Shown one piece after another: positions 5,903 to 53,678 of a stretch of DNA of 64,000 bases (position 1 is its first letter; every line of letters begins with the position of its first letter). The translations under genes and the position numbers were made by a program. The stretch spans positions 33,588 through 97,587 of the forward strand of contig CAKQUG010000005.1 in the NCBI GenBank assembly GCA_934277545.1. The letters are read 5' to 3'. The notes under the pieces were generated by a model. It had not been told where the DNA came from. It searched no databases and was given only the letters and a program-made list of their open reading frames with translations. Origin of the DNA: an uncultured Alphaproteobacteria bacterium (GTDB lineage: Bacteria; Pseudomonadota; Alphaproteobacteria; RF32; CAG-239).

Positions 5903-8900
5903 TTACCACTTGTAGCGGATATTTCCACCGACACCCCAAGCACTGTAGCTTGAACCGAAGGTATAGTTACCGAACGCTCCGAGCGAGAAGTTTTTAACAA
6001 TTTCAGCGTCGGCGCCGACTTCAATACGTCCCAAAGTTTCGTTTTCAATGGTCTTGTCAAACGTCGTATCGTTAACTTTGACATTGCCGCCGTTGGCGAT
6101 AGTCTGAATTACCGACGGTTTAATATAACCGGTTGTCGGCAGCTGGCGTTCATTGTTAAACTGATATTCATATTTAATACCGGCTTCAAGTTCTATATCG
6201 TGAATGGTATCAAAACTTACTTCCTTGCCGGTTGAATCTTTGATGTCATCAAATTTGATATAGTCATAAGTAGCCTTAATTGATGGAGTCAAAACCGAAC
6301 GCTGCGAGGTTTTAATATCATAGCCGATTTCAGCCTGCGCGCCTAAATTCAGTCCGTCGGTTGAAGCGCTGACGCCGTTGTCAGCCTTTATATCAGCACT
6401 TTGCATACCTCCGTAAACCGCGCCGCTCATAAACAGGTCGCCGAAATATTGACGATAGTAAGCACCGCCTAAAACGCTGGTAATATCCAATTCACTGCCA
6501 TAGTTGGAAAGAATATCACCCTCGCCTTTGCCGCTGTTTTCATAAGTGCCGTCGCGGTAAGAACCGAAGATTCCGAACTGGCTGGAAATGTTGAACTGGT
6601 GGTCATAGCCAAAGTCAACTCCGTACATTTTAACATCGGTTTCAACCGGCTTGTCAAACGTGCCGGAACGATATACCGGAGTAGCCCAAACGCTGTCTTT
6701 ACCGCCCATATCACGGAAGTTGCAGACTTTGTAGTTGCATTCATCACGATAGCAGTTGCAGCTGCCTTTATCCAAACGTCCGACATTAAACAGCAGCGAA
6801 CGGCTTTGTTCAATCGCCGAACGAGGCAAATCAATATAGGCGATAACCTCGGGGCTCAAAAACTTAGTGCGATAGAAATACCAGTCGTTAACCATTCCGT
6901 TTTCATCATGGCCGATACCGATTTCATAAATATTGCTGCTGGCTTTGGAAACAAACGTATAATCAGCCAAAGACTGCTCGGCTTGAGTTTGCGCAAAATA
7001 AATACGGTCATCAATACCCAGTTTCAAGTTTGTCGCATTGTCAAACGCAATATTGGTGGTTCCGTAAATCTTATCGTTTACAATAATGCGATCGGCCTTC
7101 AAGTTCGGATTATCCACATCAATGCGGATAGTACCGTTTTCGCTTTGCACCGTGTTGATGGAAAAGTCTGTCAGCACACCGTCGCCTAAATTCAGCAGGC
7201 CGGCATTTTTAAGAGTATTTGCCAAATTTTTGCTGGCAGTACCGTCGTTTGCCTTGTAGTTAATTGTTGAACCGCTGAAAATATCAAAATTGTTATTAGT
7301 CAGGCTATCGCCGTCATCCAAGTTCAGATAAGAGCCGGAATTAAGATTTACCACCGTGTTTTTAAGATTGAGCGTCGGCTCGTAATCTATGTATCCGGTT
7401 TTGCCGATATTTAATTGCGTGTTGGCAATATTATAGACACCGGTGCCGGCAAAAGTCGAGTTAAGAATAATTTGCGACTGCGAACTGTTTACCGCTTGCG
7501 GCAAAACCGCGCTGCCAACCGACATTGTGCCCAAAATCAAATTCGGAGAATCGCCGGTAATGGTAATTGTGCCAAGGTTATAAACATCATCCGCCGTAGT
7601 GTTGAACACCAGCTTCGCCGTGTCGGACAAAGTAAAATTCATATCTCCGGCCGTTTCATTATAAATGGCTCCGCCCAAACCGCCGGTTGCGCTGTTGCCG
7701 TCAAAAGTCAAAGACGTGTCTTTTTTCAGGCCGGCATTAAACACAGCATGACCGGAATTATATACCGCGCCGCCTTTTGCCGCTTTGTTAGCGCTGAAAT
7801 TTATGCTTGCCGTATTGGTTACATTATTGGTTTGCAAAGTGATTTTGCCCAAGTTATAAATCGCTCCGCCGTTTTCTCCGGCTGCGTTGCGCGCAAACTG
7901 CACAGTTCCGTTATTGCCGACCGCCAATTCAATGTTGCCAAACTCATAAGTTCCGGAGGTTTGGTCTAAGTTACCGGCGTTTGCCCAAGCACCACCGTTA
8001 ACTCCGGCCGTGTTATCGCTGAAAGTAAGCTCATAACCGTCCGAAACCTTAAAAGTCATACCGTCTTCATCGGCATAGTTATACATTACACCGCCGTATT
8101 TGTTTGCTTTGTTTCCGCTGAAAGCAATATTTCCGCCGGTAGCATTCACGGTTAAACGGGAAATTTCACCGTCCGGGTTGTTAGTGCCGTTTCCGCTTGC
8201 CGAATTTGCCAAAGCACCACCCAAATCGGCTTCATTTTGTTTGAATAGTATCGTATGTCCGTTTTCGGCAAAAATATCCAGCTGTCCCAAATTATCATTG
8301 GTTATGGCGCCGCCGATACCTGATCCCGACGCGGATAAAGCCTTGTTGCCGGATAATTCTATATCGGCGTTGCGAGCAATAAGCTGCAAGCGGCTTACAT
8401 GTCCGGAATTATTTTCGCCTTGAGCCCGGTTATAAATGGCACCGCCTTCTGCCCCAACTCCAGGATTGGCAGAAGCGCTGATAACCTGGTTGTTTTTAAA
8501 TGAACTGTCAATAATTTCGCTGAGCGGAGAAGTATTTTCGCCGGCTGCCGTAGCATTGGCAAACGCACCGCCGTAAGACACTCCGGTTTGCGATTCCGCA
8601 CGGGCGTAGTTGTTTTCAAACGTGGCTCCGCTGATGGTTATTTTTCCTTCATTATAGACAGCGCCGCCATAAACATTGTTGGTGTCGTTAACGGCATAGT
8701 TGTTGCTGAAAGTCGCACCACTGACCGAAGCGACACCGGTCAAACCATTGCCCAACGCACCGCCTTTAACCACGACACTGCCGTTAGCATGGTTGCCGTC
8801 AAAGACCAATCCGCCGTCGGTTGCTGTTAAAGTTCCGTCATTATAAAAAGCACCGCCGAACACGCCGGTATTTGTTGTTGTGCCGACGCCTTGCAGGCTG

Positions 8901-10186
8901 TTGTCGGAAAACAAAGTGTTGCCGGTAAGGGTATAGGAACCGCCCTGTGCGTTATAAACGGCGCCACCGTATGCGGTTGCAGCTTCGGCATAGTTATTGC
9001 TGAAATTATTTTCATCGGCGGTATAAGTACCGCTGTTGGAAACCGCGCCGCCTTTTGCCGTGGAGGTTGCTTTGCTGTAATTGTTTGCGAAAACACTGCC
9101 GGAAACAGAAATAACGCCGTTATTATAAACAGCGCCACCCTCGCCCAATTCGTCGCCGGCCACATAGTTGCCGCTAAAGTTGGTACTTCCATTGTTGGTT
9201 ATGGTAAAATTGCCGGTAACGCCGTTTTCAATTCCGTTATAAACCGCTCCGCCCTGAGCTGTTGTTCCTTTGGCAAAGTTAGATTTAAAGACATCATTTT
9301 CCGAAATGAACGTGCTGCTGTTATAAACTGCGCCGCCCATAGCTTTTTCGGTAGTCTTTCCCACAAACTGCGTTAAAAAAGCGTTGGTAGAAGAAGTTTC
9401 GTTTGCTGCATAATTGCCGACATATTGGTTGTTTTTAGACAGCAAATAGCCTTTATCCGTATTATCCAAAGCAAAGTTAGAAACCGCACCGCCGGAAATT
9501 GTTTTTTCGCCCATTACATAGTTTTTAACAAATTTGCTGTTGCTGATAACATTATCCTGATTATTGCTGTAATTGGCAATCGCACCGGACGTAATCATTC
9601 CGGTCGGATTATTGGCGCTGGCACTATTGTTTTCAAAAGTGGTGTTTGTTATTTTTATAAGTGGCTGAGTTCCGATTTCATCTTCATCGCCAACCGCAAA
9701 AACACCGCCGCCGACCTGATTCATTAAAGCGCGGGTATTGTGCTTGTTAGAGATGATAACGCCGCCGGTTACTTCCGTAATTTGTCCGGTACCAAAATCA
9801 TATTTGTAACCGGTATAAACATTGCCGTTATCAAATATCCAAGCGCCGGCCTTAAACTGAGCCGGGTCGGAACCTTCCGAAAACAATTCCTGCGTGTAGT
9901 TTCTGTCAATATACAAAGTGCCGATAGACTGCTTGTTGGCTCCGGTATCGGTACTGATGGTGGTTCCCATATAATCTTTGAGATAACCGATAGTAGTTTG
10001 ACCTTTAGAATCCAAATTCCCCGAATTACTGGCATTGGCAGTCTGGTTCGGTGTCCAATCGTCGGCAACAGCCGGAGCTGCCGCCATAAAGAAAGCAGCC
10101 GCCAAATTCAGCAACAAGCATTTTTTCAAAACACTGCGGTATTGCGCATTTAACAAACCTAAAGTATGACTATGTGCCTTCATCAT
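5903..10186 (-). CDS. Very large autotransporter (type Va) outer-membrane protein with a Pmp-like repetitive passenger domain
   Basis: 1427 aa. The extended signal peptide is MMKAHSHTLGLLNAQYRSVLKKCLLLNLAAAFFMAAAPAVA. The passenger carries dozens of GGAVYN / GGAI(Y/T)N and F(x)xN tetrapeptide repeats (Pmp-type). The C-terminal roughly 300 aa look like a beta-barrel translocator and end ...GNIRYKW with an aromatic last residue. The RBS AGGAGA precedes ATG 10186. Confidence 0.85.
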   Translation of the reverse strand: MMKAHSHTLGLLNAQYRSVLKKCLLLNLAAAFFMAAAPAVADDWTPNQTANASNSGNLDSKGQTTIGYLKDYMGTTISTDTGANKQSIGTLYIDRNYTQELFSEGSDPAQFKAGAWIFDNGNVYTGYKYDFGTGQITEVTGGVIISNKHNTRALMNQVGGGVFAVGDEDEIGTQPLIKITNTTFENNSASANNPTGMITSGAIANYSNNQDNVISNSKFVKNYVMGEKTISGGAVSNFALDNTDKGYLLSKNNQYVGNYAANETSSTNAFLTQFVGKTTEKAMGGAVYNSSTFISENDVFKSNFAKGTTAQGGAVYNGIENGVTGNFTITNNGSTNFSGNYVAGDELGEGGAVYNNGVISVSGSVFANNYSKATSTAKGGAVSNSGTYTADENNFSNNYAEAATAYGGAVYNAQGGSYTLTGNTLFSDNSLQGVGTTTNTGVFGGAFYNDGTLTATDGGLVFDGNHANGSVVVKGGALGNGLTGVASVSGATFSNNYAVNDTNNVYGGAVYNEGKITISGATFENNYARAESQTGVSYGGAFANATAAGENTSPLSEIIDSSFKNNQVISASANPGVGAEGGAIYNRAQGENNSGHVSRLQLIARNADIELSGNKALSASGSGIGGAITNDNLGQLDIFAENGHTILFKQNEADLGGALANSASGNGTNNPDGEISRLTVNATGGNIAFSGNKANKYGGVMYNYADEDGMTFKVSDGYELTFSDNTAGVNGGAWANAGNLDQTSGTYEFGNIELAVGNNGTVQFARNAAGENGGAIYNLGKITLQTNNVTNTASINFSANKAAKGGAVYNSGHAVFNAGLKKDTSLTFDGNSATGGLGGAIYNETAGDMNFTLSDTAKLVFNTTADDVYNLGTITITGDSPNLILGTMSVGSAVLPQAVNSSQSQIILNSTFAGTGVYNIANTQLNIGKTGYIDYEPTLNLKNTVVNLNSGSYLNLDDGDSLTNNNFDIFSGSTINYKANDGTASKNLANTLKNAGLLNLGDGVLTDFSINTVQSENGTIRIDVDNPNLKADRIIVNDKIYGTTNIAFDNATNLKLGIDDRIYFAQTQAEQSLADYTFVSKASSNIYEIGIGHDENGMVNDWYFYRTKFLSPEVIAYIDLPRSAIEQSRSLLFNVGRLDKGSCNCYRDECNYKVCNFRDMGGKDSVWATPVYRSGTFDKPVETDVKMYGVDFGYDHQFNISSQFGIFGSYRDGTYENSGKGEGDILSNYGSELDITSVLGGAYYRQYFGDLFMSGAVYGGMQSADIKADNGVSASTDGLNLGAQAEIGYDIKTSQRSVLTPSIKATYDYIKFDDIKDSTGKEVSFDTIHDIELEAGIKYEYQFNNERQLPTTGYIKPSVIQTIANGGNVKVNDTTFDKTIENETLGRIEVGADAEIVKNFSLGAFGNYTFGSSYSAWGVGGNIRYKW

Positions 10187-27717: not shown

Positions 27718-27804
27718 GGGGTTGTGGCGGAATTGGTAGACGCGCCAGACTCAAAATCTGGTGGCAGCAATGTCTTGAGAGTTCGATTCTCTCCGGCCCT
27801 ACCA
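27718..27804 (+). tRNA. tRNA-Leu (anticodon CAA), class II with a long variable arm
   Basis: 87 nt. D-arm GCGGAATTGGTAGACGC. Anticodon stem-loop CCAGA-CTCAAAA-TCTGG gives anticodon CAA. T-arm GAGAG-TTCGATT-CTCTC, followed by the 3' acceptor strand CGGCCCT, discriminator A and an encoded CCA. The acceptor stem GGGGTTG/CGGCCCT needs three G-U pairs. Confidence 0.8.
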
Positions 27805-29217: not shown

Positions 29218-31034
29218 AAATGAAAAAAGAATATGAAGATTTTTTGCTAAGCGAATATAAAAACAGTAATTTTGAACCGTTTAAAATTTCTTTGGGAAAA
29301 TATGATTTTTTTGTTCCTGTTGCGTATGCGACCGGCAACTATGATTACAGCGCTTTTGAACAAGCACTTTTCAGTCAATACCTTAAAAATCAAGCTGCCG
29401 AAATTGCAAAATACAGCAAAGACGGCGTACGAAAAATTCCGACTTTACGTTTTAAGGACAGGATTATAGTCAAACCTTACAGCTTGAGAAATTTGCAAGA
29501 TGATGAAGCTAAATTGAAAGTTGTAGAAAATATTTATGCCCGCTATAAAAAAGCGGTTCGTCTGACAATGCTGTTAAACAATGCCAACCCTGACAACTCC
29601 TTAAAAATCAGAGTAGACACAGATAATATGAAAAGGCTGAATAAAGCCTATAATCAATATCTGGCACAAAAATTCAAAGACAAAGCGCTGGTTTCCGCGG
29701 CAAAAATGAGTGATTTTACCAAGCAGGGCGGAACTATTCTTTATAACACTTTCAAAGTGTTAACCGCTCCAGTTTTCAAAAACATGAGCGATAAATATTT
29801 AAAACGCCTTGAACACATCAAAAAAATTTTTGAGAAAAATCATAAAAGAATTGGGGCTGTTTTGGGTGCCGCCACATTATGCGCTTTTTTATCGCTTAGT
29901 GTTTATAAATGCGCGAATCCTAAAAAAGAACGTAAATCCGACATTATTGAAGCGGGGATTGCGCCCGATAAAACATTAAAAAACATATCTGACGCCGTAA
30001 TTTATTATAAGCACGCAGCAAAAAAAAATAACACCTCCAAAGCAAAACAAAATACCGCTGCTAAAACTATCGGCTTTGAAACTCTGGACGAAAACGTACA
30101 AGAAGCGTTAACCGCTCAGGGTTTGGGCAAAGATCAATTAAACGATGTGCAAAAGCACAATTTAGCCGCCTTTATAAATACGCAGCAGGATTTCAGAACT
30201 TTTGTAGCGTTTGCCGAAAATTTTCATTCCGCCACCTACGATGACAATAAAGGATTTTTAACAATCGGTTACGGCTGCACAAATTATTTGGATGAAAAAG
30301 GAAATCCGCTGGAAAAACGCGGAATTAAAGGCAAAATGTCGGCTTTTGTGCAAAAAGGTCAATACATCACGCAACGACAGGCCATGCAACAGGTTGACAG
30401 AGCCTCTTATTTTTATCTGCTACCGAAAATTTTAAAAAATGTAAAAGTAAAGCTGAACAATACCAAAATGTTTGTAACCAAAAACTTTGCTTTTGTAGCC
30501 AATAACGAATTCGGAGATTCGGAATTTGTAAAAGCCTTAAATGAAAATAAACCAAACAACCATTTAAGCCGCTGTTTGGCACTGTGGAAAGTCGACGCCG
30601 GAATTTCCAAAAGGTTTTTTGTTCTGCACATGATTTTGAACAATTACATTACTGCGGATGAAATAAAAACTTTTAAACCAGCCGGATGCTATAATTTGCA
30701 GATTGACCAGTGCTTGGTTTGCCATAAAAATCCAGACGGTTCAACTAAAATGAAAAAAACTCCGGTGGTAACTACTGAAATTAAAAACGGAAAAAAGAAA
30801 AAAATAAGACGCTTTAAAAACCGCCCGGTGTATAAAATACAAAACGGTATGCCACAATTTTATTGCAAACAACAAGCTATAGATGAAGCAGTCGCTTTAA
30901 TGAAAGCCGAACCTGATGAAAAGTGCGTGGCGCAAATTGTACCTTTGGAAAAGAAACAAACAAAATACCTGAGCGAAAACACCCCTAAAGTAAACCTCGT
31001 GAAGGTTAAACAAAACAAAAATGCTCGCAGCTGA
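29218..31034 (+). CDS. Membrane-anchored protein with a GH24 (T4/lambda-type) lysozyme domain and an unknown N-terminal domain
   Basis: About 605 aa from ATG 29218, after AAGGTG. One central transmembrane helix (IGAVLGAATLCAFLSLSVY). Downstream of it lies the GH24 catalytic motif FAENFHSATYDDNKGFLTIGYGCT, which aligns to T4 lysozyme E11/D20/T26 ([21 protein letters not shown]), and then QQVD...RCLALW as in T4L. The C-terminal tail is very basic and rich in Cys. The N-terminal roughly 230 aa have no recognizable family. Confidence 0.7.
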
Positions 31035-39685: not shown

Positions 39686-40828
39686 ATGTTAAATGCCGGT
39701 ATATTTATATTTGCGTTGTTGATTTTTGTCGGTTTGGCAGCCATGCTGATTGTTTTTACCCCCATTGCCAATAAATATATGCAAACGCTGACTGTAACTC
39801 CGGCGATGTTGCCTTTCAGCTATATTTTCGGCTTTTACGCCGTCGGTTCGATTTTAATTTATTATTTTTTTCCGCTTAATGATTTTATAGAACCGCTGAC
39901 GGCGAATCGCTTTTTTATTCCATTGCTTTTGGCGGCGGTTATTTTTATATCTTCCATGTTCTTTGACAATTCAATTTTTATACCGATTGTTATTGCCTGC
40001 GTGGCGGTTACTGTTTTTTTACAGCCGCTGGGCAGCGGATTTCCTTATTCCGCTTTACCGCTTTGGGCGGCACGGCTTTTGTTAATTGCCTTTTTCTCAA
40101 TATTCTGCATTTTTTACGGTGTGCTGAATTTTTTGCCGCACACCATGATAATTTCAGCAATTCTAACTTTATCCGGTCTGGCTTTGCTGCCGTTTTTTTC
40201 GGCGGCTCCTTTTTATTTTCTGCTAAGTTCGGCTTTGTTAATCGGTACCCTCGCCGGTTATTTATGCGTTAACCTGAACACGGTAAAAGTTCCTTTTGAC
40301 AGCGGTTCGTCCTGCGCTTTGGCTTATTTATTGAGTAACCTGATTTTGCAAGACAGCGGGGAATACAGCTTTAGTTCCTGCATTATTTTTACCGCGTTTT
40401 TCTGGAGTGAATTTGCTTTTGCTTTATGGAATAAATTTGTAATTGTTAAATCCGGCGCCTTATATGAAAACACAAACTGCGCCTTGGCCGCTCAAAAATA
40501 TAATTTGCGCTTTTTAACCATCAATGTTGCCAAAATCTGCGGAGTAAGCCTGTTAATCGGCTGTTTCCAGCTGTTTGCCGTCAATCAATATTCGCTGATA
40601 ATAATTTGTTTGGCTATAACAGGCTGGCTGAGTCATACCATGCTGCACCCGTTTAATTCCGACTTAAAAACAATCAATGCTGAGTTTGTGGCAGATTTCA
40701 AGCAAAATCTGGCTAATATTCATAATGACCTGAAATCTTTGCAGCAGCCTGATTTGCCTAAAAAAAACAAGCAGCCTAAAAAAGCCGCTAAACGTAAATC
40801 ACCGCGCAGCACACGCAAGGAATCGTAA
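39686..40828 (+). CDS. Hypothetical polytopic membrane protein with a basic C-terminal tail
   Basis: 380 aa with about 10 predicted transmembrane helices and a C-terminus LPKKNKQPKKAAKRKSPRSTRKES. No recognizable family. Confidence 0.5.
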   Translation: MLNAGIFIFALLIFVGLAAMLIVFTPIANKYMQTLTVTPAMLPFSYIFGFYAVGSILIYYFFPLNDFIEPLTANRFFIPLLLAAVIFISSMFFDNSIFIPIVIACVAVTVFLQPLGSGFPYSALPLWAARLLLIAFFSIFCIFYGVLNFLPHTMIISAILTLSGLALLPFFSAAPFYFLLSSALLIGTLAGYLCVNLNTVKVPFDSGSSCALAYLLSNLILQDSGEYSFSSCIIFTAFFWSEFAFALWNKFVIVKSGALYENTNCALAAQKYNLRFLTINVAKICGVSLLIGCFQLFAVNQYSLIIICLAITGWLSHTMLHPFNSDLKTINAEFVADFKQNLANIHNDLKSLQQPDLPKKNKQPKKAAKRKSPRSTRKES

Positions 40829-40831
40829 AAT

Positions 40832-42169
40832 ATGTCATTTTCGCCGAATTTATTAAATATACGCAGCCTGCTGGGTTCTGAAAAAAAGCCTGATAAAAAT
40901 GGCTTGTTTCGGGTTACGGTTGTGGCGTTTGAAGACAAGTGCAGTCTGAACTGCGGTCTGCGCTTTGCCGAGCTTTTGAAAAAAAGCAATTTATTTGACA
41001 TAACTTTTTTTAACGAACCTTTTGCCAAAGGATTTTTAAACCTGCAAAGCCGCAATTTTTTTGACTTTATTGACCGCGGCAATAAAATTTTGAGCTCAAC
41101 ACAAGCCGATATTGTGATTTGGGGCTATGAAGACGACGGCAAAATCCGCCTTAATTTTCAGGTTGCCAACCAATATGCCATTCCGGGCAGCCTATCTTTT
41201 TCATTGCTGGACAGCTTATTTATTCCTTTAAACTATTTAACCGACACCGCGAATTTTTCCGAATCGCTGCTGCTCTTAATTTATGGAATAATCGTGGCGG
41301 CGATAAATCCGGTTACAAACGCACAAAAACAAAAACGTCCGCAAATTCTGCAAGAGCTTATCGCCCTGCTATCCGCCGATAAATCACCCAAAGACATATC
41401 TAAAGAATTTATGCCTTACATTATGAATTTATTGGGTAAAATTTACTTGTGCAACGCTTGCGCCAACTTAACCGAAAAAGACATTGAAATTATTCATAAT
41501 CTGTTTGAATTAGCGCTCAAAAATAAGCAATACATCAGGCTGCCCATTTATTACGGCTGTATTTATAACAATTTCGGACAGCTGTATGAAGCGGCTTTCC
41601 GGCAAAGCAGAATGGGAAACATCAGCTATTTGAAACAAGCCATTTCCAACTATCAATCGGCGCAAAAAAATCTGAACCGCAACTATCCTTATGATTTTGG
41701 GCTGATTGCTTATCATTTGGCGCAGCTTTATTTTGAATATTGGAAGCACACCGCCGATTTACAGGCTTTGCGCGACGCCGTATCAAAACTCCGCGAAGCT
41801 GAAAAAGTGTATTCTTTGGCACAGTTTCCGGAATCCTGGTGTCAAATTGAAGGACTTTTGGGCAATTACATTACCTCTCTCGGTCTGCAAACCAAAAGCA
41901 ACGAGCTGATGCAACTGGCGATAGAAGCCTATAAAAGCCAGCAGAAAATTTACACTCAAAACAACGCTCCGGCTGTTTGGGCAGAAATTCAAGAAAAAAT
42001 CGGCAATATTTTTTATTTGCTGGGCAAACAAAATGATGATGACAAACTAATGGAAGAAGCCCGCAACTATTTTAATTCCGCACTGGAAATATATAATGAG
42101 CTGAATCTGAAACACGGCGTTAAAAACGTGGAACGCGCCTTATTAAAAATCAGAAATTATTTGGGCTGA
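40832..42169 (+). CDS. Hypothetical protein with a TPR-like helical C-terminal region
   Basis: 445 aa. Begins 4 nt after the upstream membrane protein, so it is operonic. No motif recognized. Confidence 0.45.
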   Translation: MSFSPNLLNIRSLLGSEKKPDKNGLFRVTVVAFEDKCSLNCGLRFAELLKKSNLFDITFFNEPFAKGFLNLQSRNFFDFIDRGNKILSSTQADIVIWGYEDDGKIRLNFQVANQYAIPGSLSFSLLDSLFIPLNYLTDTANFSESLLLLIYGIIVAAINPVTNAQKQKRPQILQELIALLSADKSPKDISKEFMPYIMNLLGKIYLCNACANLTEKDIEIIHNLFELALKNKQYIRLPIYYGCIYNNFGQLYEAAFRQSRMGNISYLKQAISNYQSAQKNLNRNYPYDFGLIAYHLAQLYFEYWKHTADLQALRDAVSKLREAEKVYSLAQFPESWCQIEGLLGNYITSLGLQTKSNELMQLAIEAYKSQQKIYTQNNAPAVWAEIQEKIGNIFYLLGKQNDDDKLMEEARNYFNSALEIYNELNLKHGVKNVERALLKIRNYLG

Positions 42170-43862: not shown

Positions 43863-44576
43863 ATGTTATACATTTTAACAGGTTTTGTATTCGGCTGTTT
43901 AATTCCCTATTTGGCACGTCGTCTCGGCAAGTTGATGCCGGCAACCATGGGCTATATTCTGCTCAAAATTTTTATCCCTCAGCACTATATGCCGTGGAGC
44001 AAACTGAAAAATGATTTTGAATATATGCAATTATTCAAAAGATATATGATGAGAAGTTTGGGCTGGGGTATTTTTTGCGCCGCCGTTACATATTTATTTG
44101 CCGTAAATTTTGACCCGTATTACACCGGCTGGTACATTGCTTTTTTATGGATTATGCTGCTGCTTGTGGAAATTGACAAGCGCTTTATGCTGCTGCCTGA
44201 TGTTTTGACTTTACCACTATTGGTGCTGGGTTTCGGCTATGCGACAATTAACGGCGTGTGGCTGGACACGATTGACCCGCAGCTTATAAGCAATGCACAA
44301 AACAGTTTTATGGGTGCCTGCGCCGGATATTTAATGCCGGTTGTCGCCAGTATGTTTTTAGTTTGGAAATACCCGGACGCATTCGGCGGCGGCGACATTA
44401 AACTTTTGGCGGCTATCGGCGCTTGGGTCGGCTTGGGACCTATTTCCTACATTTTGCTCGGTTCCTGCATTTTGTTTGCTCTCGGCTGCTTAATCAAAAA
44501 GCAAAGAGTCGGTCCGTTCGGTCCTTCCATTGTCTACGCCACTCTGCTGGTTTGCATTTTCTTGTTCGGAATCTAG
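43863..44576 (+). CDS. Type IV prepilin peptidase (A24 family)
   Basis: 237 aa and polytopic. Both catalytic Asp motifs are present: EIDKRFMLLPD and GGGDIKLLAAIGAWVG. No N-terminal Cys-rich Zn module. Confidence 0.8.
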   Translation: MLYILTGFVFGCLIPYLARRLGKLMPATMGYILLKIFIPQHYMPWSKLKNDFEYMQLFKRYMMRSLGWGIFCAAVTYLFAVNFDPYYTGWYIAFLWIMLLLVEIDKRFMLLPDVLTLPLLVLGFGYATINGVWLDTIDPQLISNAQNSFMGACAGYLMPVVASMFLVWKYPDAFGGGDIKLLAAIGAWVGLGPISYILLGSCILFALGCLIKKQRVGPFGPSIVYATLLVCIFLFGI

Positions 44577-44595: not shown

Positions 44596-46419
44596 ATGAC
44601 TGATCAAACAAAAATAATCTTGAAACATAATATAGAATTATCTTTATCGTCAAATGCGCCCGCAACAGATGTAGCAGCGTTGATTTGTGATTTTTTCGCA
44701 AATTATTATAAAGATGATGATGACCGCCAATACGCGCTATTAATATTTAATGAAATTTATAAAAAATATAGTAAAGATGAATTACCTGCTATTTTTTTTA
44801 GTGAGTTTGTAAGACTTTATGTCAATATTCTGCGTGAAAATTCATCAATGATGTCACCAGATACTATTGATTTTATCTGCTCTAATATAATTGACTTTGC
44901 AGATATTGCTATCAAAAAAAATCCTAAAAGCAATGTACCTTATCTTTATCTTGCCAGATTTTATAATTTAAACATCAACTCAAAACTGCTTAACGAGCTG
45001 GATACAAAAAAATTAACTAAACAATATTTTCTTAAAGCTATTAACCTTGGCAGTAAAAATGCTGTAAAAGAATACAATTCTTTTTTGAACACTCTTAGCG
45101 CCGCAACATCTTTTGATTTTCTAAACGTGAATATAAACCTAAACAAAATTGTTGATGCCCTCTTAAACAATATTGATAAAGACCGTTTTTCATTATTGCT
45201 TTATGGACCTGAAGGCAGCGGTAAAAGTATATTTGCTCAGCATTTGATAGGAAAAATAAAAGATTTTTACAATCAACACAATTTAACTTTCAAAATTGTA
45301 AAATTATCTCCGTTTAACTTTGATGAGAATTTTAAAAATATATCAGAAACAACTACTTTGATACAAATAGACGATAATTTCGGAATTGCTCTAAAAGATA
45401 TAAAACACTGCTATTTACTGCTTAATAAAATAAAAAAACAAACCAACAATATCATTGTTTCCATAAACTCTCTGGATAATCTGCCCAAAGATTTTATTTC
45501 TAATTTTTTGTTTAAGATAAAATTCAATTATATGAATCAAGAACAAGAAGAAGCCGCTTATGAGCTATTTTTCAACAACAAAGCCCCTGAAGAGTTAAAA
45601 TCTATAAGCGGAATGGTTATCAGTGATTTTAACCGTATTCAAAAAACTTGTTCTGTTCTAAATATAAATAAAAATGCCGATATTCTTAATATGATAAAAG
45701 ATGAAATGTTTTTCAAATTTGGCAATAACAACTACAACAAGCCGATTATTCAGTTTGATTCTAAAATGATAAATTGCGATACAGATGTTGAAGTTTTGAT
45801 TGAAAAACTGAAATATTATGACCCGAAATATCCGTTTTCGATTTTAGTTTATGGTCCGCCGGGAACTGGTAAAAGTTATTTTTTGCGTTATTTAGCTCAA
45901 AACATTGGTATTTCAACCGTTGAAAAGAAACCAGCAGAGATGTTTTCTAAATATCAAGGACAACCGGCAAAAGAAGTTTTAAATATCTTTAAAGAAGCTC
46001 AAGACAAAAATGCCATGCTTATTATTGATGAAATAGAAGGCATTATTTCTGAACGCGGCAAAGATTCCGGCGAAAATAAATGGAAAAGCGATATGACAAA
46101 CTCCTTTTTATCTTCATTAGAAAGTTGCACCGTACCGTTTGCCGGCACCTCAAACCATTTAAAATTTGTTGACAAGGCCATTTTACGGCGGTTTGTCTTT
46201 AAACTGCATTTTGATTATTTAACTACAATGCAGGCAATTTATGCCTTTGAAAAAATATTTGGTTTAATTGCACCATATGAAAAAATATCAAAATTAAAGC
46301 ATCTAACCAGCGGTGATTTTTCTATAGTTAAACGAAAAGCTCTGATTTTGGGCTGCATAAACGACGCAGAAAAATTGTGTGATATGCTAAACGATGAAAT
46401 AGCTAAAAAAGAATTATAA
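44596..46419 (+). CDS. Tandem AAA+ ATPase with an N-terminal helical (Sel1/TPR-like) region; strongly AT-shifted composition
   Basis: About 607 aa from ATG 44596, after AGGTGA. The first, degenerate ATPase module has LLLYGPEGSGKS and hhhhDD (LIQIDD). The second is a classical AAA module: ILVYGPPGTGKSYFLRYLA (Walker A), MLIIDEIEGI (Walker B) and ILRRF (second region of homology). The listed ORF from 44530 is an upstream extension that overlaps the peptidase gene. Confidence 0.75.
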   Translation: MTDQTKIILKHNIELSLSSNAPATDVAALICDFFANYYKDDDDRQYALLIFNEIYKKYSKDELPAIFFSEFVRLYVNILRENSSMMSPDTIDFICSNIIDFADIAIKKNPKSNVPYLYLARFYNLNINSKLLNELDTKKLTKQYFLKAINLGSKNAVKEYNSFLNTLSAATSFDFLNVNINLNKIVDALLNNIDKDRFSLLLYGPEGSGKSIFAQHLIGKIKDFYNQHNLTFKIVKLSPFNFDENFKNISETTTLIQIDDNFGIALKDIKHCYLLLNKIKKQTNNIIVSINSLDNLPKDFISNFLFKIKFNYMNQEQEEAAYELFFNNKAPEELKSISGMVISDFNRIQKTCSVLNINKNADILNMIKDEMFFKFGNNNYNKPIIQFDSKMINCDTDVEVLIEKLKYYDPKYPFSILVYGPPGTGKSYFLRYLAQNIGISTVEKKPAEMFSKYQGQPAKEVLNIFKEAQDKNAMLIIDEIEGIISERGKDSGENKWKSDMTNSFLSSLESCTVPFAGTSNHLKFVDKAILRRFVFKLHFDYLTTMQAIYAFEKIFGLIAPYEKISKLKHLTSGDFSIVKRKALILGCINDAEKLCDMLNDEIAKKEL

Positions 46420-46436
46420 TTTTAAGGTTTGATATC

Positions 46437-46465
46437 TTGACATTGCATTTTGCAAACACTAACTA
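46437..46465 (+). promoter_or_regulatory. Candidate groESL promoter
   Basis: TTGACA-N17-TAACTA. No CIRCE inverted repeat (TTAGCACTC-N9-GAGTGCTAA) is present. Confidence 0.4.
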
Positions 46466-46506
46466 AACAAGTAGTTGAATAAAACTAATTGTTTAGGAGT
46501 ATTGAA

Positions 46507-46794
46507 ATGAACATCAAACCATTACACGATAAAGTTTTAATCAAGCGTGTAGATGAAGAAACAAAAACTGCCGGCGGAATCATTATTCCTGACACGGCAA
46601 AAGAAAAACCGTCTGAAGGCGTTGTTGAAGCTGTGGGCAACGGCCGTGTTGCTCCTGACGGAAAAATTATCGCTTTGTCCGTAAAAGCCGGCGACCGTGT
46701 GTTGTTTGGCAAATGGGCAGGCACAGAGATTAAGGTTAACGGCGAATCTCGTTTGATTGTTAACGAATCTGATATTTTAGCTATTATTGAATAA
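46507..46794 (+). CDS. groES: Co-chaperonin GroES
   Basis: 95 aa. [29 protein letters not shown]. The RBS GGAG precedes it. The listed ORF from 46489 is an upstream extension. Confidence 0.95.
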
Positions 46795-46808: not shown

Positions 46809-48455
<1,647 letters not shown>

Positions 48456-48473: not shown

Positions 48474-48513
48474 GCTCCCTGTTTTGATTACTTCAAAGCA
48501 GGGAGTTTTTTTT
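48474..48513 (+). terminator. Rho-independent terminator after groEL
   Basis: Hairpin ctccctg...cagggag followed by TTTTTTTT. Confidence 0.8.
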
Positions 48514-48730: not shown

Positions 48731-51154
48731 TTATTGTTGCGTTTCACCTTTTTTGAGAGCATAGAACTGATTTTCTTGTGCCACTTTTTCGCCGGAGTGA
48801 ACCACTATCTGCGGGAACGGAATTTCTATTCCCTCGTCAATAAAGCGTTTGTTGATGGCAAAACGCAAATCGCTCGGCACAATCCAACCTTTCCAAATAT
48901 CATTGGTATAGCAACGCAGTTCAAAGTTCAAACTGCTGTCGGCAAAATCTTTGAACAACACATAAGGCGCCGGATTTTTCATAACATATTTATGAGCAAG
49001 CGCACATTCCAACAAAATTTTACGCACTTTTTCCACATCCGAACCATAAGCCACCCCAACGGAAATGCTTTGGCGCGAGATATTGTCGCCGTGGGTCAAA
49101 TTTACGATAGAGCTGGAAAGCAAAGTCGCGTTAGGCACAATCACGCTGGTGCGGTTAAAACTTTCCATTTCGGTTGAACGAATGTTGATTTGCTTAATTT
49201 TACCTTCCGTACCGTTCATAATTACCCAATCGCCCACCTTAAACGGACGCTCAAACAAAATGATGACACCTGAAACAAGGTTCTTAATTACGTCCTGCAA
49301 ACCAAAACCGATACCTACCGACAAAGCACCGGCGATGAATGCGAGGTTAGTTAAATCTACACCGACGGCGATAATGGCCAGTAAGCACGAGATTATAAAC
49401 CCGACGAAGCTGATACCTGAAATTAAAGAGTGCTTAATGCCGTCGTCAATATCCATATTGTTAAAGACATTGGTAGCTAAATGTTTTTTAATCAGCTTAA
49501 CCACGGTTAAAGACACAAAGAACACCAAAATACCAAAGGCAATGGCAATAAGTGAAATTTGCACGCCGCCGATTTTGAAACCGAATAACAGTTTTTTACC
49601 CATTTGCAGCATAAAATCGCCCGGTAAACCCCACAGATTAAGCAAAGTGAAAATAAAGGTTAAAACCAAAATAGGATTTATAAAAGAGGTTATCCAAAAT
49701 TCTATTTTGCTGACATTGCGTTTAGTTACTTTTATAGATTTCATCCACGGGCTAGCGAGCACCAAACGCTTTAATATATCAATAAAGGCATGGCGGAATA
49801 ATTCAAAAATACCGAATATAACCATGGATAAAATCAGATTGCGTAAAATAAATGAAGAAAGCTCAGGGTAACCGATTAAAGACAAACCGAATGCTGTTGC
49901 TAACAACAAATTACTGGCAACCATAATTTTAAAACCGCTGTCCAAGGAATCGTGATCTTCTTCGTTTTCTTCGATATCTTCAGCTGTAATTCCTTTCATC
50001 TCACGATAAGAATCTACAGCAATTTTAATTATCCATATCAGGAAAAATGCTTTAACCGCACATGAAATCATCGTCAAAAAGTGTATGGTATCAATGGAAT
50101 ATTTTGCTTTTTGAGCAACAGTAACCTGTATAAGAGCAATGGCGTTGCATATAATAAACAAGAATATCACTCTGGTAAAGCGCAGAGCTTGGTCGTTTGG
50201 AATGTTAAACAATCGCCATTGCGGATGATTCGGCGCAAAAGTAACACGAGAAATAGTTGCCTCGATAATCGCCAAAAAAGAGGCAAAACCGCTTATCATC
50301 AAAACATGTCCCAACAGACTGTCTCCAAAAATTTTAGTGCTGACCATCCAAATCATGCAGGCGCCGACAAAGGCATCCGGAATCAAACCTCGAGCAATAG
50401 CGACAGCTATGGCGGCAACAATTTTACGGCTGAAATGCGGCAATTCAATGTCGTCTTTATATCCCCAGTGCGTTAAAATGTATTTACGCAGAATAATAGC
50501 GACAGCTAACGCGGCAATCAAAATCAGCGCCATGGAAACAATGCTCAAAATTGTGTAACTGCGGTCTTCGGCCGGTATTCCCTGATACCAGTCAACCGGC
50601 GATTTGGTAATATTCCAAAAGAAAATGGCATATAATTTCAAGCTGTTAAAGAAGACCATAGGGTTAATCAAGGCGGACTGTTTGGTGATTAAATCTCCGT
50701 AAACACGTTTGCTGCGAGCATTCAAAACCTGAGCGGTCAAGTCTTCTATTTTAACAATCAGTAAATCCGCTTCTTTCAGCACACGGTCTTCGGCGGTTAG
50801 CTGTTTAGTCAAGTCAGCACGCTGTCTGGTTATTACCTTGTCTTCTGTAGCGCCTTCTTTAGGTTCTCCAAGGGCATCAAGCTGTTTTTGGATATATTTT
50901 ATATCCTTGTCTAAATCTTTGCGGGTACCGCTGATTTGTGCTTCTTGTTCGCTTAAATAACTGACATAACTGTTTATGTTATCTTCAGTTAAATTTTCTT
51001 TTTTCAACTCATTGTCAATTTGTTCCAGTTTTTTATTTATCTTATTAAAATCTATGGAATTTTTAGAATCCGCACCGTCAGCGGCTTGCAGATTACCGGC
51101 CAGTAATACAATGGTAAAAAAAGCAATAAAAACAGCTTTAAAAAGTTTAGCCAT
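48731..51154 (-). CDS. MscK/KefA-like mechanosensitive channel (large MscS family)
   Basis: 807 aa. Signal peptide, a periplasmic coiled-coil N-terminal domain, about 11 transmembrane helices, and the C-terminal MscS domain (GDWVIMNGTEGKIKQINIRSTEME...). A terminator hairpin aagccgct-ttttcaa-gcggctt lies just downstream at about 48695-48722. Confidence 0.85.
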   Translation of the reverse strand: MAKLFKAVFIAFFTIVLLAGNLQAADGADSKNSIDFNKINKKLEQIDNELKKENLTEDNINSYVSYLSEQEAQISGTRKDLDKDIKYIQKQLDALGEPKEGATEDKVITRQRADLTKQLTAEDRVLKEADLLIVKIEDLTAQVLNARSKRVYGDLITKQSALINPMVFFNSLKLYAIFFWNITKSPVDWYQGIPAEDRSYTILSIVSMALILIAALAVAIILRKYILTHWGYKDDIELPHFSRKIVAAIAVAIARGLIPDAFVGACMIWMVSTKIFGDSLLGHVLMISGFASFLAIIEATISRVTFAPNHPQWRLFNIPNDQALRFTRVIFLFIICNAIALIQVTVAQKAKYSIDTIHFLTMISCAVKAFFLIWIIKIAVDSYREMKGITAEDIEENEEDHDSLDSGFKIMVASNLLLATAFGLSLIGYPELSSFILRNLILSMVIFGIFELFRHAFIDILKRLVLASPWMKSIKVTKRNVSKIEFWITSFINPILVLTFIFTLLNLWGLPGDFMLQMGKKLLFGFKIGGVQISLIAIAFGILVFFVSLTVVKLIKKHLATNVFNNMDIDDGIKHSLISGISFVGFIISCLLAIIAVGVDLTNLAFIAGALSVGIGFGLQDVIKNLVSGVIILFERPFKVGDWVIMNGTEGKIKQINIRSTEMESFNRTSVIVPNATLLSSSIVNLTHGDNISRQSISVGVAYGSDVEKVRKILLECALAHKYVMKNPAPYVLFKDFADSSLNFELRCYTNDIWKGWIVPSDLRFAINKRFIDEGIEIPFPQIVVHSGEKVAQENQFYALKKGETQQ

Positions 51155-52262: not shown

Positions 52263-53678
52263 TCAGCGTTCAACAGACTTTTGCAATGAAGATAAAGCTG
52301 TTAAACCTTTTTGTTGAGTTTGAGTAATGGTGTTGCCCTCTTTTTTTACCGGTTCATTTATAGCCGCTGAAATACGTCCGCTTAGTTGCAGCATTTTTTT
52401 AGGATTTGACAGTGCTTTAGCCAATGTTTTTTGATCTTTTTTCTGCGACCCCGGCAAAGCATCGCTTATTTGCTTACCCTCATCCAAACTGAATCCTGTT
52501 CTTTCTTTAGTTATTTTATTTGCCTCAATCATAAAATTTTCTGAAAGTTGAAAATCTTCTTTAGGCAGATACTGAGAAAGTTTACCAACTTTTATACCGA
52601 GTTTTTGTATTTCCGGATTTTGATCAAAAGAATCAAACATTTTGTCTTTGCGTTGAGAATAGTCCTGCTCATTTCCAATTAACAAACCGGCAGCATTTAC
52701 GTCATTTGATAAAGAAACTCGTCTCATAGTTGAAGGAACTTGTTCTTTCATATAAATTTCCAGATAATTTTCCTTCCACATTTTTATTGTACCATTTACC
52801 ATAAGCTCTTTTGCTTCATGACTATCTGGATTAAGGCCTCCGGCGATTGCTTCTTTGTAAAACGAAAACTCTCCACCCAATACATCAAATTCTTTAAGTG
52901 CTTCTTCTTTAGATGCTCCCGCAGATAAAGATTCTTTATATTTATGATTTGCAACAACCAGCTCAGCCACATTTGCCGAACATTCATCCCAACAATTTAA
53001 CTTTCCATATTCTACGGCATTCAAGCCCGGTGCATACGCATTATTTAAATCATTTATTTTATGTTGATTTTCGTGAGTTATAAAACTAATTTCTTCTGAA
53101 GGTGTCGCGGTAAAACGGTTATATTTTTCTATAATTTGCTGCGCTTGTTCAGGAGTATAATTTTTACTTTCTTTCAATTCATTAAGTTCTTCTGGTGTTA
53201 AATTAAACGAATTTATTATAATATTTTTTTCAGTAGATGAATATCCTCCCACTGTAACGCCACCCTTCTCATTAATATCGTCTAAAAAAGATTCCAAATC
53301 TTTTTTGTGCGTTCCGTCTTTTTCAGCATTGTTAAATGCTTGTTGCTGTTCTTTGCTATATTCTTTTTTAGCTGTTTTAGTAGAAGCCTGCATATTCTTG
53401 TCACATACCGCATTATCAACAATCGTATATTGTTCTCCATTTTCTCTGACAAATTCAAACGCTTTGCCATTTTCTAAAGAAATTACAAGGGTATTACTTT
53501 TTCCTTTTTGGTAGTCTTTAACTCTTTGTAATGCCTCTTTCTTTCGTGCATCTATTTGCTCTTTAGTATAGCTTTGTGCTTGAGCGGCTGTCGGAGATGC
53601 CAACACTAATGCTAAACTAAGCGTTGTACATTTAGATTTCAAAAACTTATTCATCGATTCAAGCGACATTACATCCAC
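52263..53678 (-). CDS. Hypothetical secreted protein with an HExxH motif (possible zinc metallopeptidase)
   Basis: 471 aa. Signal peptide (MNKFLKSKCTTLSLALVLASPTAAQA); the true start may be one of the internal Met codons at 53672 or 53654. The single HExxH motif is FITHENQHKIN. The protein is Lys/Glu-rich with no other recognizable domain. Confidence 0.45.
   Translation of the reverse strand: MDVMSLESMNKFLKSKCTTLSLALVLASPTAAQAQSYTKEQIDARKKEALQRVKDYQKGKSNTLVISLENGKAFEFVRENGEQYTIVDNAVCDKNMQASTKTAKKEYSKEQQQAFNNAEKDGTHKKDLESFLDDINEKGGVTVGGYSSTEKNIIINSFNLTPEELNELKESKNYTPEQAQQIIEKYNRFTATPSEEISFITHENQHKINDLNNAYAPGLNAVEYGKLNCWDECSANVAELVVANHKYKESLSAGASKEEALKEFDVLGGEFSFYKEAIAGGLNPDSHEAKELMVNGTIKMWKENYLEIYMKEQVPSTMRRVSLSNDVNAAGLLIGNEQDYSQRKDKMFDSFDQNPEIQKLGIKVGKLSQYLPKEDFQLSENFMIEANKITKERTGFSLDEGKQISDALPGSQKKDQKTLAKALSNPKKMLQLSGRISAAINEPVKKEGNTITQTQQKGLTALSSLQKSVER

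Follow-up and report, generated by a model that had tools for sequence, protein, structure and literature searches.

Several described systems resemble the locus studied here. Cdc48, p97 and VAT carry an N-terminal substrate- or adaptor-binding domain followed by two tandem AAA modules. EccA, a component of ESX/type VII secretion, has an N-terminal tetratricopeptide repeat (TPR)-like domain followed by one classical/CbbX-like AAA+ ATPase. Capsule and O-antigen loci and the hsdS specificity genes are allele cassettes that occupy fixed loci between conserved genes. IetAS pairs a serine-protease toxin with an ATPase antitoxin and acts by an unknown mechanism (PMC13069673). In this study, we analysed a stretch of 64,000 nucleotides (nt) from an uncultured Alphaproteobacteria bacterium (GenBank assembly GCA_934277545.1, contig CAKQUG010000005.1, positions 33,588 to 97,587), hereafter called the window. 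The element in question is an open reading frame (ORF), the AAA gene, that lies between the gene of an A24 (type IV prepilin) peptidase and groES. Its product is composed of a TPR-like domain, a degenerate AAA module (D1) and a classical AAA module (D2). Comparison with related loci showed that this ORF is an allele cassette, whose diverged and intact alleles were swapped between lineages by homologous recombination ending at the ORF ends. On balance, we believe that it is a resident, lineage-specific, type-II classical AAA+ gene of gut and rumen Alphaproteobacteria, carried as an exchangeable allele cassette, and that it more probably encodes a hexameric unfoldase that is driven by D2 and recognizes its substrates through the TPR domain than anything else we considered.

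The synteny and the allele statistics rest on about 12 distinct loci, which came from human gut, pig gut, roe-deer rumen and other rumen assemblies; a metagenome scan for more gave four. The loci were retrieved by means of the AAA gene itself, and genomes without this gene would stay unseen. The order A24 peptidase gene, AAA gene, groES, groEL was found in every related locus recovered. The window was compared with the locus L027. The AAA ORF had mismatches at 14 of 1821 nt (0.8%), whereas the A24 gene plus groES had 145 in 999 nt (14.5%; Fisher p = 6e-52). The shared tract runs from the A24 stop codon to the promoter region of groES. The flanks of L027 were 94-96% identical to those of L011, and its allele was 93% identical to the L011 allele. 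Since both the flanks and the allele of L027 are L011-like, the window allele looks like an import from the L027/L011 sister lineage.

In two further comparisons, too, the ORF and its flanks had diverged to different degrees. The loci L004 and L015 were 99-100% identical over about 6 kb upstream and through groES, whereas the identity of their ORFs was 59-85%; mismatches amounted to 25.2% in the ORF and 0.7% in the flanks (p = 1e-84), and synonymous divergence was saturated. The allele of L015 was L014-like: L014 and L015 differed at 5.4% of positions in the ORF and at 16.6% in the flanks (p = 6e-21), and the tract that they share extends over the TPR domain and D1 into the start of D2. Replacement with such gene-bound ends is mostly met in genes that take part in biological conflict, and its restriction to one cytoplasmic ATPase gene is unusual.

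Most of the comparison loci are metagenome-assembled genomes (MAGs) or metagenome contigs. The mosaics might therefore be chimeric contigs of co-occurring strains, with the AAA gene simply a fast-evolving orthologue. We consider this very unlikely. The three mosaics came from independent studies and assemblers. The shared alleles were 99.2% and 94.6% identical and so do not stem from one set of reads assembled twice. The flanks were 80-88% identical and had hardly any shared k-mers of 87-141 nt that would allow switching at both ORF ends. The exact window protein was found on five contigs of up to 231 kb.

The initial annotation of this DNA had described the ORF as far more AT-rich than its neighbours (roughly 30% against 40-45% GC), with abrupt compositional borders, and had taken this for a sign of horizontal acquisition. 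The description was accurate. The GC content of the ORF was 0.298, the lowest among the 51 ORFs of the window (mean 0.420, standard deviation (SD) 0.041; z ~ -2.9), and the GC content at third codon positions (GC3) was 0.260, the second-lowest (mean 0.418, SD 0.064; z ~ -2.5). Counted over 200 nt at a time, GC was 0.47-0.49 in the peptidase gene, 0.26-0.30 at 44600 and 0.445 at 46500 in groES. The drop and the recovery at these points indicate that the composition shift tracks the boundaries of the AAA ORF. The GC content was lowered at all three codon positions. The fraction of F, Y, M, I, N and K in the protein reached 0.44, which ranked first among 47 ORFs (mean 0.31, SD 0.046), and the AT shift of the gene is largely a matter of protein composition. 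The distance in codon usage from the rest of the window, tried as a sign of foreignness, was unremarkable (rank 13 of 47). Of the two measures that the annotation had named, GC is deviant and codon usage is ordinary.

The claim of foreign acquisition did not survive the comparison of loci. Orthologues occupy the same site in about 12 loci, a finding that the initial annotation had itself named as grounds for dropping its reading, and the GC content of the AAA gene was below that of its neighbours in all of them (L009, 0.31 against 0.38-0.43; L001, 0.39 against 0.45-0.48; L011, 0.296 against 0.42-0.45), as well as in the distant relatives P0017 and P0018. This indicates that low GC is a trait of the AAA gene family. 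No integrase genes, transposase genes or repeats were found at the borders of the ORF. With the gene at the same site in all recovered loci and no mobility genes bordering it, the locus does not have the form of a horizontally acquired island. A recently acquired, compositionally foreign effector-like or eukaryote-like AAA gene between the peptidase gene and groES would account for the lowest GC in the window, for the sharp shift at the ORF ends and for an allele that was recently imported relative to its flanks. However, the donors are sister lineages, in which the same gene occupies the same locus, the AT shift occurs in all alleles of all lineages, and Vps4, katanin and spastin are not particularly similar. 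Every full-length homologue is bacterial, and all close ones belong to the same alphaproteobacterial clade. We regard a foreign gene as extremely unlikely, and nothing was found in support of an effector-like role. What stands of a horizontal origin is allele exchange between lineages, with 99.2% identity in the ORF of the window and L027 between flanks 11-16% apart; a foreign insertion does not stand. A gene may stand out sharply in composition without being a foreign insertion, and here the resident copy of every lineage shows the anomaly.

The ORF was judged real, with an ATG start and an AGGTGA Shine-Dalgarno sequence 6 nt upstream. The protein was modelled as a monomer with AlphaFold2 (mean predicted local distance difference test score 87.7). 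The model contains two five-stranded alpha/beta cores with lids, at amino acids (aa) 199-375 and 415-606, which are tandem AAA modules. D2 has the complete set of classical AAA motifs, namely Walker A and B, the sensor-1 Asn (N520), the two Arg of the second region of homology and an aromatic pore loop 1; the SG-D lid motif is also present. Pfam PF00004 matched D2 only (aa 416-540, E 1e-26, 94.1 bits against a cut-off of 21.2, profile positions 1-130 of 131). The residues K426, D478, E479, N520, R531, R532 and G455 were invariant in 36 sequences with identity down to 18%. The second module had been annotated as classical and Cdc48-like from the motifs GPPGTGKS, IIDEIEGI and ILRRF, and this agrees with our results. 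Against solved structures, D2 scored 72-90 bits with VAT, Cdc48, Afg2 and p97 (VAT 89.6, Cdc48 79) and 46.6 bits with Vps4B. Among the NCBIfam models, the scores were 73.9 bits for IetA, 53.4 for CDC48 and 45.5 for CdvC. These values speak against the katanin/spastin/Vps4 affinity for which the initial annotation had suggested a check.

D1 and D2 are homologous duplicates including the lid (24% identity, E 2e-14). D1 had no Pfam AAA match. The motifs on which it had been called degenerate (GPEGSGKS, LIQIDD) were found, the positions of the Arg fingers read SNF in place of RRF, and a sensor-1-like Asn is retained. D260 was invariant in the orthologue alignment; the next residue is Glu in at least 90% of the orthologues and Asn (N261) in the window allele. 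The N-terminus, which had been described as a helical region of about 200 aa with no identifiable family, is helical over aa 1-171, but its fold can be assigned. It consists of helical-hairpin repeats that superpose on solved TPR domains. The fold resembles the TPR domains of chaperone co-factors and the pilus proteins PilF and PilW, at a generic level only. A profile of the N-domain gave no significant match among the sequences of the PDB, where the top hit was the TPR protein IFIT2 (E 0.14).

A hexamer, ATPase activity and substrate threading are predicted from the motifs and the monomer fold. The protein would assemble into a double-ring hexamer, in which the D2 ring would hydrolyse ATP and thread polypeptide substrates past the pore loop at Tyr453. 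The D1 ring has kept its P-loop and lost its Arg fingers, and probably plays a nucleotide-binding structural role. The TPR-like solenoid may pick the substrate or an adaptor.

The three parts of the protein diverge at different rates. The mean identity among alleles was 54% in the TPR domain, 71% in D1 and 83% in D2. The window and L027 differ at five amino acids, all of them in the TPR domain. For pairs of recent alleles, dN/dS was 0.3-0.6 in the TPR domain and at most 0.1 in D1 and D2. Among all alleles it was 0.03-0.15; all are intact and under purifying selection. Exchange restricted to the ORF and a recognition domain that evolves fast both suggest selection of a diversifying or frequency-dependent kind, and the target is then probably variable. 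Examples would be proteins of phages or mobile elements, or variable surface or pilus proteins.

Relatives of the whole protein are rare. The N-domain profile matched about 10 clusters among 1.84 billion cluster representatives. Full-length orthologues were 55-59% identical, with one more at 92% and a cluster at 99%, and the close ones were found only in uncultured gut and rumen Alphaproteobacteria. Besides the form of about 610 aa, the N-domain family has members of 745-1105 aa, which are of two types. P0122 and P0126 have the order TPR-D1-AAA-AAA with a C-terminal trypsin-like protease. In P0018, P0123, P0127 and P0128, a third module is present but degenerate, and the C-terminus forms a hydrophobic tail anchor. 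P0017 (L006, 9789-10563) is a decaying protease form with the third AAA module and the trypsin-like domain in another frame, and it carries an internal deletion relative to P0122. No relic of a third AAA module or of a trypsin-like protease was found 3' of the AAA gene in the window. Judged by domain layout, the protein of the window is the minimal form, without a protease, in a rare family that also has third-AAA and protease or tail-anchor members. The short TPR-D1-D2 form may descend from the protease-armed forms or be their kin.

More distant double-AAA proteins (18-30% identity) had either a Peptidase_S41 gene after them (Variovorax-type) or a WYL regulator gene before them. In the first group, P0118 (a widespread double-AAA protein of about 774 aa with 311 cluster members; L020-L023, Variovorax-type) is always followed by a gene with the order Pept_S41_N-PDZ-Peptidase_S41. 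It forms with this gene a conserved ATPase-protease pair that is seemingly uncharacterised. A protein of a rumen Gastranaerophilales MAG (L017, 4612-6732) has an AAA module 36% identical to D2 and a quite different N-terminus. It was rejected as a member of the family owing to its different build, with MORN repeats, an FlhB-C-like domain and an AAA module.

These relatives bear on the question of a conflict role. The protein could be an IetA-like single-gene immune or conflict module, in which the TPR domain recognizes a phage or mobile-element protein and the AAA part unfolds it or controls a remote protease, under negative frequency-dependent selection. Scanned at full length against Pfam, NCBIfam and PADLOC, the protein matched nothing but generic P-loop or AAA-core regions. 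The top NCBIfam and PADLOC matches are to the anti-phage ATPase IetA, which is also the best curated family for the AAA cores of the relatives. However, this match is confined to a generic AAA core, and its score of 74 bits is far below the cut-off of 510. In the long relatives, the trypsin-like domain matches the protease domain of two PADLOC models, RT-Protease_XI and Avs1b, P0122 adjoins reverse-transcriptase genes and P0021 adjoins a WYL regulator gene. In the literature on AAA-trypsin fusions in defence, nothing specific to the TPR double-AAA family was found. Defence genes are often of low GC. The replacement is bounded by the ORF, with deeply diverged alleles on a background at least 99% identical, and IetAS couples an ATPase with a serine protease (PMC13069673). 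On the other hand, neither an IetS-like partner nor any other defence gene lies nearby, the surrounding genes are housekeeping genes, and no recovered relative lacks the AAA gene. Phage and plasmid collections held no full-length relative, their matches being to the D2 core only, and positive selection was not detected. We consider such a module possible but doubtful. An unrecognised defence function, which the initial annotation had mentioned, is more plausible than before, given the allele swapping and the IetA-like AAA core.

The features of the locus are collected in Table 1. Both catalytic-Asp motifs of the A24 peptidase, EIDKRFMLLPD and GGGDIKL, are readable in the translation. The AAA ORF starts 20 nt past the A24 stop codon, and this gap was 13-22 nt across loci. 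No terminator-like site was found between the AAA stop codon and groES. The element conserved in the spacer before groES recurs in L001, L004, L009, L011 and L014-L016, and in L009 it contains the inverted repeat CACTAA-N8-TTAGTG. A CIRCE operator and a clear sigma-32 promoter were sought 5' of groES and neither was found; the conserved element there differs from the CIRCE consensus. It could be a lineage-specific heat-shock operator or promoter, and its conservation suggests that groESL has a promoter of its own. Based on the short gap, the Shine-Dalgarno sequence, the absence of a terminator and the conserved spacer element, the A24 and AAA genes are likely one transcription unit, followed by groESL under its own promoter.

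Table 1. Coordinates (positions in the window) of the AAA gene, its domains and motifs, the exchanged tract and the neighbouring features.
Feature	Position	Strand	Remarks
TPR - degenerate AAA (D1) - classical AAA (D2) ATPase gene	44596..46419	+	607 aa plus stop codon; AT-shifted ORF
N-terminal TPR-like helical solenoid domain	44596..45108	+	aa 1-171, eight helices; fastest-diverging part of the protein
D1, degenerate AAA module and lid	45121..45750	+	about aa 176-385
D1 Walker A, GPEGSGKS	45205-45228	+	aa 204-211
D1 Walker B, LIQIDDN	45358-45378	+	aa 255-261
D2, canonical classical-clade AAA module and lid	45751..46416	+	about aa 386-607
D2 Walker A, GPPGTGKS	45853-45876	+	aa 420-427
D2 pore loop 1, K452-Y-Q-G455	45949-45960	+	KYQG constant among close orthologues
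D2 Walker B, LIIDE	about 46018-46032	+	LIIDEIEG, aa 475-482
D2 Arg fingers R531, R532	46186-46191	+	ILRRF, aa 529-533
Recombination tract, window against L027	44574..46476	.	14 mismatches; both flanks 11-16% divergent; from mismatch map
Peptidase A24 (type IV prepilin peptidase) gene	43863..44576	+	237 aa; Pfam PF01478, E 8e-16
Conserved promoter- or operator-like element in AAA-groES spacer	46436..46470	+	TTGAC, ~15 nt, CACTAACTAA, partial palindrome; spacers of 8 loci
groES	46507..46794	+	from translation; Cpn10 in orthologous loci
groEL	46815..48455	+	Cpn60_TCP1 in orthologous loci; followed by strong terminator
Terminator	48474-48506		after groEL; only strong one of the block

The outer flanks of the four-gene block vary between loci. 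Upstream, L25 and pth, ExbB and ExbD, a pilin gene, or topA, infA and L17 were found; downstream, an MscS-type channel gene, rpoZ and relA, thyA and folA, or a pilin gene. The pilin genes are of type IVb (PilS- or bundlin-like), belong to one sub-lineage (L009, 3337-3903 and 6434-7120; L010, 5550-6206) and sit just 5' of A24 and just 3' of groEL. A scan of the window for the class III signal-peptide motif found no pilin gene. The AAA protein might thus be a housekeeping accessory of proteostasis or pilus biogenesis, which serves the prepilin peptidase, type IV pilins or quality control with GroESL, evolves fast only through weak constraint and recombines often only because its conserved neighbours supply homology for crossovers. 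The tight pairing with A24, the block kept despite rearranged outer flanks, the type IVb pilin genes that flank it in L009 and L010, an apparent core status under purifying selection and the generic likeness of the TPR fold to chaperone co-factors, PilF and PilW are in line with this. We nevertheless hold it to be rather unlikely. To our knowledge, classical AAA proteins do not serve in any type IV pilus, Tad or type II secretion system. The more distant relatives with the same N-domain showed no linkage to A24 or groES, and the window itself yielded no pilin gene. Weak constraint also leaves unexplained why saturated synonymous divergence is confined to the ORF on a 99.3% identical background, and why three independent tracts all end at the ORF boundaries and not at random points of the flanks.

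Returning to the D2-driven unfoldase with an exchangeable allele cassette, allele swapping, the fast-evolving TPR domain, the IetA-like core and the protease-coupled relatives favour a conflict role for it. Several points weigh against this picture as a whole. Domain-wise dN/dS was below 1 everywhere, including the TPR domain, and no positive selection was detected; the quicker divergence of the TPR domain could perhaps be just weaker constraint. The AAA gene looks like a core gene, being present in every recovered locus, which is atypical for defence genes, although these loci were all retrieved through it. No effector, whether a protease or a nuclease, is encoded beside it. The swap between L004 and L015 left A24 and groES unchanged, with no sign of allele-specific co-evolution with the neighbours. 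Most comparison sequences are metagenome assemblies, in which chimerism is possible though unlikely. The apparent core status, the housekeeping neighbours and the missing effector gene, together with the absence of detectable positive selection, favour a proteostasis or pilus role.

In its most developed and more speculative form, which we think rather improbable, the conflict role would be that of a hitherto unrecognised single-protein immune module fixed at a core chromosomal locus. A diversifying TPR sensor would be combined with an IetA- or Cdc48-like unfoldase that disables phage or mobile-element proteins or frees a latent protease. The alleles would be under frequency-dependent selection and would pass between gut species that live together through recombination with its ends at the ORF. 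The TPR-AAA-AAA-AAA-trypsin relatives would be the self-contained, protease-armed form of this system.

In any case, the family represents a rare, uncharacterised branch of classical AAA+ unfoldases with the order TPR-D1-D2, to which some members add a third AAA module and a trypsin-like protease or tail anchor. In uncultured gut and rumen Alphaproteobacteria, the short form has the behaviour of a hypervariable cassette, and it is a candidate for a new conflict-related ATPase. If the conflict role fails, it would be a pointer to a new accessory factor of proteostasis or of the pilus.

Other features of the window were also recorded. A second AT-shifted ORF (52263-53669, minus strand, 468 aa) had a GC content of 0.345, the lowest GC3 of the window (0.241) and no Pfam match, and was also among the most deviant ORFs of the window in codon usage. 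Two adjacent ORFs of 380 and 445 aa (39686-42169, plus strand) had no Pfam family. Between the window and L011, the closest relative of the window, the 445-aa ORF was only 78% identical in protein and 64-80% in DNA, far more divergent than the neighbouring pth and L25. Collinearity with L027 and L011 stops at about 48512, just past the groEL terminator, and the MscS-type channel gene at 48731-51154 has no counterpart 3' of groEL in L011. This indicates a rearrangement breakpoint after groEL. An ORF of 604 aa (29220-31034, plus strand; GC 0.366) contains a phage-lysozyme domain and has a tRNA-Leu(CAA) gene nearby (27718-27804). It could be a prophage remnant or a cell-wall hydrolase. An autotransporter of 1427 aa (5903-10186, minus strand) has Chlamydia polymorphic-membrane-protein repeats and a C-terminal beta-barrel, and such a large surface protein fits a host-associated lifestyle.

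Compared with the systems introduced above, the AAA protein of the window is built like Cdc48, p97 and VAT, with a putative recognition domain before two tandem modules. D2 shares with them Walker A and B, the KYQG pore loop, the sensor-1 Asn, the double Arg finger and the SG-D lid motif. In a Foldseek search with the AlphaFold2 model, about 510 columns were aligned to p97, Cdc48 and Rix7 (E 1e-16). The differences are that a TPR solenoid stands here in place of the double-psi barrel N-domain, and that D1 is degenerate and without Arg fingers, the window allele also lacking the Walker-B Glu. The overall identity is about 15%, and the protein has only 607 aa. The score against the model TIGR01243 (CDC48) was 53.4 bits against a cut-off of 802.65, and the protein does not belong to that family.

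IetA is the best curated family for D2 (NCBIfam NF042959, E 1e-20; PADLOC IetA, E 6e-22). However, the NF042959 match reached 73.9 bits against a cut-off of 510 and covered positions 115-258 of 367 only, and the PADLOC match covered the AAA core only. The protein is thus not a full-length IetA, and the match is to a generic AAA core. The theme of an ATPase with a serine protease is shared by the wider family, in the fusions P0122 and P0126 and in the S41 gene beside P0118. IetA differs in having a single AAA module and, judged from profile lengths, about 370-400 aa, without a TPR domain or a second module. The neighbours of the AAA gene in the window are the A24 aspartic peptidase gene and groES, with no IetS-like serine-protease gene beside it, and its locus is a conserved housekeeping block, not a plasmid or a defence island. 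The TPR double-AAA family could inform how IetA-type ATPases work.

EccA is similar in description, with its TPR-like domain joined to an AAA part, but it has one AAA module and lies in type VII secretion loci. It gave no sequence match in any search made, and the window contains no type VII secretion genes. The genetic behaviour of the locus has its parallel in the capsule, O-antigen and hsdS cassettes. The cassette described here is a single cytoplasmic ATPase gene and not a surface or restriction-specificity locus, but it shares with them diverged alleles at one position, homologous recombination through the flanks and a lower GC content.

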